This document shows, piece after piece, positions 7,676 to 10,027 of a DNA stretch of 64,000 bases. The stretch's first letter is position 1. The number at the start of each line of letters is the position of its first letter. Origin of the DNA: Lophium mytilinum (Eukaryota); NCBI GenBank assembly GCA_010093605.1, contig MU004185.1:2005334-2069333 (forward strand). The letters are read 5' to 3'. Made by a program: the position numbers and the translations under genes. A model generated the notes under the pieces. The model searched no databases, was not told the DNA's origin, and saw only the letters and a program-made list of their open reading frames with translations.

Positions 7676-8374
7676 CACGTGGCAACTTATCTTCAAGGAA
7701 ATCCTTCCACTTTGCTTAGTCAGCTGCACCGCTTAGTCACGTCACGTGCCTTGCTTCGTCTCTTTCTTTTCGAGTAGGTATAAAAGCCCGTCGCTCGCGG
7801 TTGAAGTTTCTTCTTTAGGGTCGGAGGAGAGTCAAAGACACGTTCGATTGAAAAACAGCCGAGGGTGGCCTTCGATGTGTTCGGGTGGCGGGGATCGTGT
7901 GCTCTAAAATGTCACACCTAACCCGTACATGTTGTTGCTGGAGTGGGTTCTGGTTTAAAACACCGCAGGGAGAAGTCCAATGGTTGAGGCTTGTGGGGGA
8001 TCAGAATTTAGACCAGGAAATGGATCATGGGGGGAGAGGGAGAGTTGGTAGTGGAGAGCTCTTGGTCGCGCATATGATGGACTGCATTTTCTGGCGAAGT
8101 TGGCGGTAGCGAGCGGTATGGAGAGGTGATACGGATGGGCATGGTAGGGGAGAGATTGAGAGTATCATCACTATGGACGAAGGCGCGCCAGCTCTCCTCC
8201 CCCCTCCATCGCGCTTTTGTTTCTCTCCAGTTTTCCCAGCGACCACCAGACATGTACTCGTAATGGCTGTGTTTTTGATGTCTGGTGTCCACCTCCTCTG
8301 CTCCAGAAATCGAACTACCCGCCCGAGGAGGAAGATTTATACTCGCCCGCGAGAGCCAGCACGTGAGACACGTG
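7676..8374. other. Convergent-promoter non-coding cassette 1 (candidate hairpin/dsRNA locus)
   Basis: + module: CACGTG 7676 and 7743, TATAAAAG 7779, GGAGGAG 7823. - module: CACGTG 8360 and 8369, TATAAAT from 8341, GAGGAGG from 8298. Nested complementary blocks inside; no credible ORF. Confidence 0.55.
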
Positions 8375-8440
8375 GCTGCTCAGCTCATCACTGCTTCAAC
8401 GCTATCGAAGTCGTTGGGAGAGCGATGACGGCGTGACTTT

Positions 8441-9215
8441 CACGTGCAGACAGGCTCTGGCTGGGCGGTAGGGGGTATAAAAGGTCCTTCTTCGTTCGTG
8501 TCGAGGTTTTATTTGGCATGGCGGAGGAGGTTCTGGGGCTGGTTCAAAAGCTTCTTTGCAGAAGTTCGATGGTGCGAATGGGATTGGCTGGCGTGGCTTC
8601 TGCAACATATGCAAGAGCGTCAACTGATGGAGTGGTTGGGCCGGGTTTGGTGCAAATCTTTCCACGTTTTCCCGTCATGGGCTGGTGGGGGCGCAACATT
8701 TTCCACGTTTTCCCGTCATGGGTTGTGGTGTGTGCAACAACTCAGTAAGGAAGAGAAACCTCATGGAGAGTGGAGTAGTCTCGGCGTTTTAATCATCAAC
8801 TGATGGTGGTGAGTGGCATTGCTCGGAATTGAAGCTCCTAAGCTTCCATGAAGTAACGGTTCTGCGGAAGCGAACTATGATACTCAGCACCACTACTTCA
8901 CAAGATGATATGTACCACGCCTTGTATGATCCACCACCGCACATTTCCATTCTCTCATTTGCTCCAGATGTACCGACACCGACTCCATGAGGAGACTAAG
9001 ACGTACTCGTTGCCCCCAAAGCAGACACATCGCAAATGTCTCCTCCAGGTGTTGAAAAACACTCTTCTCGAACACCAACTCCATAGATTATTCTTGTGCT
9101 TATTGTTGATAACGAAAAATTCCTCCGGGCCCCATGCCTAAGAAAGCAGCTTAGCCCGCAAGCTTAAATACGAAAAGATCGAAGCCTCAGCACGTTTCCT
9201 CGTGATCCTCACGTG
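8441..9215. other. Convergent-promoter non-coding cassette 2
   Basis: + module: CACGTG 8441, TATAAAAG 8476, GGAGGAGG 8523. - module: CACGTG 9210, TATTTAAG from 9170, GGAGGA from 9126. Terminal inverted blocks GGCATGG/CCATGCC and CGGAGGA/TCCTCCG. Confidence 0.55.
8651..8738 (+). repeat. 41-bp-period tandem duplication with a perfect 23-bp core TTTCCACGTTTTCCCGTCATGGG
   Basis: Core at 8659-8681 and 8700-8722; the units begin TGCAA/CGCAA. Confidence 0.9.
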
Positions 9216-9279
9216 CCTTCCCCATTCTCATCTCGGAGTTGGAGCAGGAGTGAATCGCGTCATGCGCGGTCACCACACT

Positions 9280-10027
9280 CACGTGCCGACCAACTTCCGC
9301 CAGCCTAGCGAGAGTATAAAACCTCGCCACCCTCCCCGTTCTAGCTTCCCTCTCCAGAGGCGGACAAGGAAGAACTGAGGGAGATACAGAAATCTGAGAT
9401 CGGCTTCTGCTATCGCGGATTGCGATTTGTCTGAGGGAAAATCAAAAAAACATCGCAGAAACCGCATGAGAGGGGGATTGGTCGGGACTGAGTTGCGTCT
9501 CGAGGCGTTCAAAAGATTTGGACGTAACCATCGATGGGTGTGTGTTGGGCTCATTTGTCACTGCCATGGAATGGACGGAAGGAGGGGAGAGCCAGCTGTG
9601 GCAAGATTCTACGATAATGAAAACCTTCCTTTTTCGAGCCCGATTTGGGTTATCATACGCGGACATAATGATCAGATGTGTCGTGAGACTCTCTTTCACA
9701 GGATCGGTTCAGAAAGGTGACTGTCAGCACTAAGAGCTTGACGTGATAAACATCGAGTCGGGCTTCTTCCCCCACCACATCAGAACTCGCCTCCTCCGAT
9801 TTTGCAGCACCGATACCACCCCACATGGTTTGTGTGAATCCCGAAATTTGACCTCCTCCATGGCATCACCGGTCGATCGCCCTTATTTGAACCCCAAACG
9901 CGCAGCCACCGCACCCCATGTGAACTGCGTAGTAATTGTTTTAAAGGGTCGATGTTGCTCCTAACCTGTACAGTCGAAACCTAGAGAGGGAAGAACTTTT
10001 ATAGTAGGGATGAAAAACCTGCACGTG
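9280..10027. other. Convergent-promoter non-coding cassette 3
   Basis: + module: CACGTG 9280, TATAAAA 9315, GAGGCGG 9357. - module: CACGTG 10022, TATAAAAG from 10003, AGGAG from 9962. Confidence 0.5.

Follow-up and report, generated by a model that had tools for sequence, protein, structure and literature searches.

The DNA considered here is a 64-kb stretch of nuclear ascomycete sequence from Lophium mytilinum (contig MU004185.1, positions 2,005,334 to 2,069,333; hereafter the window, in whose own numbering all positions are given). Between protein-coding genes it carries two loci at which short segments, here called cassettes, are each enclosed by two promoter-like modules that point toward one another; three cassettes lie in tandem at 7.7–10.0 kb and a fourth at 27.4–28.2 kb. 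Long open reading frames (ORFs) of the window match DPP IV, dynamin, a GH64 glucanase, PCNA, MutS, DnaJ and FSH1, a protein-atlas look-up places the product of the gene to the left of the array in Ascomycota clusters, and the introns visible in RNA contigs are of the GT..AG type, 47–117 nt long (one of 310 nt), with CTRAY branch points. Both loci sit between convergent protein-coding genes, with stop codons at 6933 (+) and 10374 (−) in the first case and at 27056 (+) and 28879 (−) in the second. The reading favoured here, with a confidence slightly short of even, is that the cassettes comprise eight short, E-box-regulated, non-coding RNA polymerase II (Pol II) units in four tail-to-tail pairs, whose promoters have kept their motifs while their bodies no longer align.

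Eight Modules in Four Inward-Facing Pairs

A module was defined by a TATA-like heptamer, TAT(A/T)(A/T)A(A/T), sought on both strands of the window, with CACGTG (the E-box) at most 50 nt upstream and GGAG or GAGG at +38 to +54. There are 34 such heptamers in the window; exactly eight have an upstream CACGTG, and every one of these eight is followed by GGAG/GAGG in the specified interval. They are the same eight modules that the initial annotation had listed, each found at its position (Table 1), and its description of their elements needs correction for the TATA boxes: a TATA-like heptamer is present in 8/8, but two of them (−9170 and −28168) read TATTTAA, not TATA. The combination is far more frequent than chance would have it, as had been proposed. 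In 300 dinucleotide-preserving shuffles of the window the E-box condition was reached by 0.28 sites on average (maximum 3), and E-box plus GGAG by 0.027 (maximum 1); a natural control of 80 fungal metagenome loci encoding relatives of the left gene (886,278 bases) contained a single TATA-like site with an upstream E-box, which was 6 nt away and lacked GGAG. The E-boxes themselves are concentrated, with 8 of the window's 22 CACGTG words inside 7676–10027, while the control loci have no more than three in any 2.4 kb.

Read along the forward strand, the modules are oriented + − + − + − in the array and + − at 27–28 kb, that is, as four inward-facing pairs, and the two TATA boxes of a pair are 562–767 nt apart in 4/4 pairs, which bears out the pairing described earlier. 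At the array, the right module of cassette 1 and the left module of cassette 2 form a back-to-back node with TATA boxes 135 nt apart; at the second locus, the left module sits 345 nt past the stop codon of the upstream plus-strand gene.

Table 1. Promoter-like modules and cassette bodies, with the strand toward which each module points
Feature	Coordinates	Strand	Elements and remarks
Module c1L	7733..7848	+	E-box 7743-7748; TATAAAAG at 7779; CT tract; GGAGGAG at 7823
c1L, additional			Further E-box 7676-7681; exact GCTTAGTCA at 7714 and 7731
Cassette 1 body	7849..8270		ORF-poor; + strand G-rich to ~8183, C-rich beyond
Module c1R	8271..8381	−	E-boxes 8360-8365 and 8369-8374; TATAAATC leftward from 8341; GAGGAGG ends near 8298
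Module c2L	8426..8548	+	E-box 8441-8446; TATAAAAG at 8476; GGAGGAGG at 8523
Cassette 2 body	8549..9101		Skew switch near 8834; 41-nt tandem duplication 8637-8722
Module c2R	9102..9220	−	E-box 9210-9215; TATTTAAG leftward from 9170; GGAGG at 9126
Module c3L	9264..9390	+	E-box 9280-9285; TATAAAAC at 9315; GAGG/GGCGGACAAGG at ~9357
Cassette 3 body	9391..9935		End of skew plateau ~9762
Module c3R	9936..10043	−	E-box 10022-10027; TATAAAAG leftward from 10003; AGGAG at 9961
Module c4L	27350..27468	+	E-box 27357-27362; TATAAATA at 27401; GGGAGG at 27444
Cassette 4 body	27469..28096		Skew switch at 27690
Module c4R	28097..28218	−	E-box 28208-28213 (second 28227-28232); TATTTAAG leftward from 28168; GGAGG at 28123
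c4R, additional			GCTTAGTCA at 28195

The spacing within the modules is regular. The distances from E-box to TATA are 24, 24, 33, 35, 35, 36, 44, 45 and 45 nt, in agreement with the helical-turn steps claimed for them: they are phased at about 10.4 bp, with a Rayleigh resultant of 0.887 at 10.25–10.5 bp that was equalled by 12 of 20,000 random sets when periods of 9–12 were scanned, although the values are possibly not independent because the modules may be paralogues. Downstream of the TATA box follows a CT tract that is poor in A (2–4 of 32 bases at +8 to +40 in 8/8 modules), and a pyrimidine-A step occurs at +31 to +42 in all eight, with GGAGG directly after it. Searching the window with a profile of all eight modules added no ninth one, and the two at 27–28 kb were missed by a profile built from the six of the array; sequence-level similarity among modules is weak, and the resemblance is one of motifs and spacing. 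A link between the two loci comes from another short word: all three exact copies of GCTTAGTCA in the window (7714, 7731 and 28195) adjoin module E-boxes, which supports a putative relatedness of the array and the 27–28 kb locus. TTAGTCA, in the context of this word, is presumably akin to an AP-1/Yap-type half site. A literature search with TCACGTGC returned unrelated papers only, mostly primer sequences.

Three E-boxes (7676, 8369 and 28227) are not the nearest ones to any TATA box, and of these only 7676 and 28227 are more than 50 nt away from one. Next to the outermost of them, 7676-7681, a minus-strand TATATA is found at 7612, 69 nt away and pointing into the 3′ untranslated region (UTR) of the left gene; with its E-box and without GGAGG it may be a degenerate ninth module. 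At the opposite end of the second locus, right of the E-box pair 28208/28227, the plus strand turns G-rich at 28233-28300 (GGGTAGGGAGTAGAAGGGAAG...), like a cassette body and with no TATA box preceding it; any transcript of this segment would be antisense to the tail of a PEBP-domain gene.

Core Promoter Layout

As reported in a transcription-start study of Aspergillus nidulans (PMC4046813), CACGTG belongs to the commonest promoter motifs of that fungus, with a peak at about −70, most TATA boxes precede the start by 30–45 nt, and pyrimidines prevail on the sense strand between −50 and +25. The modules share with the TATA-type (“tight”) promoters described there the E-box near −70, the TATA box 30–45 nt before the start, and the pyrimidine tract up to the start; their E-boxes, 24–45 nt upstream of TATA in 8/8, would lie some 60–85 nt before the predicted start. 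The modules thus have, with starts that are predicted, the TATA-type core promoter layout of filamentous ascomycetes. The initial annotation had proposed that they follow a core promoter grammar of their own; because A. nidulans promoters in general are reported to share the layout, it is not private to the cassettes, and the claim of a novel grammar has to be dropped whichever reading of the loci holds. In contrast to the A. nidulans promoters, the full combination here drives no protein-coding gene and occurs eight times in 64 kb, only in inward-facing pairs; its E-boxes lie at phased distances from TATA, and GGAGG is conserved where transcription is predicted to start. The remaining 26 TATA-like sites of the window all lack the full combination. 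What is unusual is therefore the strictness with which the layout is used, its copy number, and the lack of a gene behind the promoters.

E-box factors and TBP might bind such sites as boundaries, roadblocks or nucleosome-free nodes that halt read-through, any RNAs being by-products; the position of both loci between convergent genes and the gathering of E-boxes in compact nodes would suit such a role at the level of the DNA. A boundary, however, needs neither a TATA box, CT tract and GGAGG at fixed distances nor strand-specific words throughout the cassette bodies (see below), and we regard this explanation as improbable, among the least likely of those weighed here.

The Cassette Bodies

The bodies were searched for coding capacity from several sides. 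A codon log-odds score was derived from 11 known ORFs of the window, which themselves (11/11) score 0.024–0.263; the 18 cassette ORFs reach at most 0.043, and 16 of them are negative. No candidate intron of the usual size (47–117 nt) is present in the array, and the few weak intron candidates are confined to cassette 4; Pfam gave no match at E<0.05 for any of 53 stop-to-stop frames of at least 45 aa, and no homologue was found for a 134-aa cassette ORF. An 81-aa ORF, compared with 1.84 billion representatives, had two matches, at E 5.3e-4 and 7.6e-4; the former covers only a stretch of 21–35 residues repeated within a repeat protein and was treated as chance, and the latter consists of three stretches. 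With neither codon bias nor credible homologues, a conventional protein-coding gene was rejected, and the earlier statement that the cassettes hold no convincing ORF is upheld by codon scores, introns, Pfam and homologue searches alike. As for rapidly evolving genes for tiny proteins or peptides, orphan or arisen de novo, ATG-initiated ORFs of 8–134 aa do follow soon after the predicted start in each unit, and ATGG is enriched on the sense strand. Yet the codon scores look non-coding, no peptide is common to the cassettes, aligned ATGG words are followed by no period-3 pattern, and exact look-up of ten cassette ORFs in a protein collection gave 0/10, a weak point in itself, so that orphan genes, too, rank among the most doubtful of the explanations. 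Pheromone or RiPP (ribosomally synthesized and post-translationally modified peptide) precursors were set aside on the basis that the listed ORFs show no shared peptide and no obvious CaaX/Kex2 pattern, no dedicated scan having been made.

Structured RNA fares no better. Rfam yielded no match at the gathering score and nothing credible at E ≤10, the best values (E 4.1 and 0.56) belonging to unrelated families, and the idea of a small nucleolar RNA, raised by TGATGA words and a TACTAAC-like branch point near 27730, found no match among C/D or H/ACA models. Whole-cassette RNA folds compared with shuffles gave z values of −1.14, +0.51, +0.31 and +2.38; for windows of 110 nt taken from either strand, 140 in all, z averaged −0.07, with five below −2 and none below −3. 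A precursor no more stable than shuffled sequence speaks against hairpin loci of the microRNA-like or hairpin RNA (milRNA/hpRNA) kind, and the hairpin part of the initial annotation is given up.

Outside the modules, the cassettes do not align with each other (all blastn E ≥0.34), nor does blastn match them at E ≤0.1 to any other part of the window or to the 80 control loci. Their best inverted repeats are of 14–24 nt at 71–93%, and their sole tandem repeat is the 41-nt duplication of cassette 2 (2.1 copies, 82–84% matches). Each copy of this duplication carries TTTCCACGTTTTCCCGTCATGGG, in which there is a near E-box (CCACGTT) together with a single TCATGG; the repeat period is not divisible by 3. 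A miniature inverted-repeat transposable element (MITE) or other foldback transposon was considered and rejected, there being no terminal inverted repeats, target-site duplications or further similar copies; the likeness to such elements lies in the mirror symmetry of the back-to-back nodes, which here is a symmetry of motifs only. The cassettes are recognizable neither as repeats nor as ends of transposable elements.

Strand Asymmetry and the Extent of the Predicted Transcripts

The two halves of each cassette differ in composition in a manner that follows the orientation of the modules. In 8/8 modules the interval +40 to +140 has more G than C, as had been noted for the strand presumed to be transcribed, and the cumulative G−C curve has a single maximum within each cassette, at 8183, 8834, 9762 and 27690. 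Short words behave accordingly: in the eight sense halves TCATGG occurs 9 times (0.82 expected) and GTGGTG 11 times (1.24 expected), both with no antisense occurrence, and ATGGA occurs 15 times (3.07 expected) and in 8/8 halves. For about 14 nt after ATGG the sequence is ~50% G and 27% T and then returns to background composition, and when the motif is strictly defined, all 12 of its instances within cassettes lie in the sense orientation. As the skew and the sense-only words flip near the centres, short transcripts ending mid-cassette seem a better description than long double-stranded RNA (dsRNA); the flip suggests that each transcript would mostly cover its own half, with which some central overlap is compatible. 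Near the points of strand switching, ATCAT/ATGAT words are found at 8024-8164, 8792-8926, 9652-9668 and 27685-27800, 13 of 15 at a relative position of 0.37–0.69 and often as ATCATCA or TGATGAT; they could be transcript-end signals.

Loci of the Dicer-independent small interfering RNA (disiRNA) type produce small RNAs of ~22 nt from both strands, without Dicer, and become methylated. The cassettes might be convergent dsRNA/small-RNA loci resembling those of Neurospora; the two transcripts of each cassette would then overlap, and the overlap would give rise to small RNAs and possibly to methylation of DNA or histones nearby. All four pairs face inward, with 562–767 nt between TATA boxes, and the cassettes are non-repetitive; in the Neurospora work (PMC3764098), convergent transcription is reported to trigger methylation of disiRNA loci, which lie in gene-rich, non-repetitive DNA and measure a few hundred bp upward, so that opposed promoters in such a setting are common to both. 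However, the disiRNA loci described (PMC3764098) are mostly ordinary genes with antisense transcripts and without a common promoter module, not dedicated ORF-less cassettes, whereas the strand-switching composition found here, as if each strand were transcribed mainly over its own half, points to limited overlap. In cassette 4, moreover, an RNA contig reaches only as far as the centre (see below). We consider it unlikely that the cassettes are dsRNA or small-RNA loci.

Evidence from RNA and from Relatives

RNA evidence came from unstranded contigs of one run, X1; it contains many GT..AG joints, at depths of 1 to 5,000, and is therefore RNA. Over 7600–10267 the depth was 6.1, 3.6, 1.1 and 2.7, with a fraction of 0.55 of the sampled words present, which is comparable to that of the weakly expressed GH64 gene (6.2). 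At the second locus, a contig of depth 224 runs from the upstream gene through the +27401 module and ends at ~27669, some 70 nt past 27599; this end, deduced from the record coordinates, falls 21 nt short of 27690, where the skew of cassette 4 switches. The left half of cassette 4 is thus transcribed.

Several observations weigh against eight independent Pol II units, and they are best taken together. The depth over the array (1.1–6.1) is 30–200 times below that of neighbouring genes (~125–5,000) and could be background; the contigs derive from a single unstranded run, and the starts and ends of the units are predicted. Because the contig of the upstream gene continues into the left half of cassette 4, the RNA there may be nothing other than a 3′ UTR of that gene, of ~610 nt. 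G/T-rich sequence containing ATGG words is also found past the stop codon of the left gene (7170-7560), an ordinary gene, and in other 3′ regions, and G-skew is common 400–600 nt past other stop codons, so the composition of the bodies is not cassette-specific; transcribed non-coding tails of this genome may have it in general, which fits a presumed transcription from each module toward the centre. Profiles made with one module left out recovered the omitted module at E<0.05 in 3/8 cases, that is, the likeness is mostly at the level of motifs. Finally, L001 and L002, the two closest of those loci that have a useful length (their orthologues of the left gene show 71% and 68% protein identity), have no cassettes downstream of that orthologue, and the downstream genes differ; with downstream synteny lost, no conservation supports a function, and the array is not shared at this distance of 68–71% protein identity.

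The last of these findings, as well as the low RNA depth, would be expected if the cassettes were non-functional relics, that is, the decaying copies left by a few lineage-specific duplications of a segment with promoters (a bidirectional promoter node or something like a foldback element), their motifs persisting by fairly recent duplication or by chance and not by selection. The foldback potential of the nodes at the DNA level also agrees with this (z −2.49 for 8265-8552, with 2 of 200 shuffles as good, and z −2.39 for 9098-9394). But E-box, TATA, CT tract and GGAGG are present in 8/8 modules, with helical phasing, next to bodies that cannot be aligned, and survival of the motifs under such circumstances is hard to reconcile with uniform neutral decay; nor were terminal inverted repeats, target-site duplications or other copies found in the 64-kb window or in the 886 kb of fungal loci. 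A relic origin is therefore rated as doubtful, about on a par with dsRNA production.

What L001 and L002 do share with the window lies to the left of the array and is confined to the left gene, a conserved “mucin-like/hypothetical” gene, and part of its 3′ UTR, in which common blocks extend to ~7400; when 6934–7400 is compared with 9060–9560 of L001 and 11534–12030 of L002, short identical blocks appear, for example GCACTTCTAGCGGGCGTT and ATAGGTACC..GGATGG. Their retention suggests that they are candidate regulatory elements. The left gene itself is covered by a GC-rich block at 4000–7000 (59–64% GC versus ~50% elsewhere), the upstream part of which has long overlapping ORFs on both strands. 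Farther left, at 1–1700, the plus strand is very G-rich (GC skew +0.46 in the first kb) and has no long ORF; with several ATGG plus GT-rich motifs it represents a second kind of strongly strand-asymmetric non-coding DNA.

A Model for the Paired Units

Taken as eight non-coding Pol II units, the cassettes could work as follows. A unit promoter would consist of a TCACGTG(C/G) E-box about two, three or four helical turns before the TATA box, followed by 30–35 nt of A-poor CT tract between TATA and the start; transcription is predicted to start 31–42 nt past TATA, immediately before the conserved GGAGG. Neighbouring units would have compact bidirectional E-box nodes in common, and for this reason a basic helix-loop-helix (bHLH) factor binding CACGTG probably co-regulates them. 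The units would give rise to non-coding, G/U-rich RNAs, some 120–440 nt long and ending near the cassette centre, whose bodies appear to keep only their G-richness and sense words (TCATGG, then a GT-rich run). Since the motifs are kept and the bodies are unalignable, a function, if there is any, would have to lie in regulated transcription or in short RNA motifs; as judged from the sequence, it is not to be sought in a folded RNA or a protein. Of the interpretation originally attached to the loci, the promoter-like inward pairs and the non-coding bodies are retained, and the private promoter grammar and the hairpins are not.

A more far-reaching version joins these elements. The cassettes could be lineage-specific, co-regulated, mirror-paired units, with selection preserving nothing but the promoter design (phased E-box and TATA box, GGAGG at the start) and a G/U-rich RNA word code, and with the two polymerases meeting at the centre, their collision or a short duplex serving as a condition-dependent signal between the convergent genes; the output could be, for example, the seeding of small RNAs, local chromatin marks, or the sequestration of an RNA-binding protein specific for UCAUGG followed by GU-rich sequence. 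This extension is speculative, and we would be surprised to see it hold in full.

Intergenic long non-coding RNAs (lncRNAs) of filamentous fungi, the subject of PMC5738166 and PMC6094484, are likewise ORF-less Pol II units that are weakly expressed and poorly conserved; the difference is that here the units are mirror-paired, in tandem, and share a single promoter design. No description of such a mirror-symmetric tandem arrangement with one promoter design was found in the literature searched. If the cassettes are relics, they would show that promoter motifs can outlast the alignability of the sequences transcribed from them. If they are functional, eight promoters of one design driving ORF-less tail-to-tail transcripts would constitute a compact natural system, suited to the study of convergent transcription, of promoter grammar, such as the helical phase between a bHLH site and TATA, and of sequence-independent lncRNA function in fungi.

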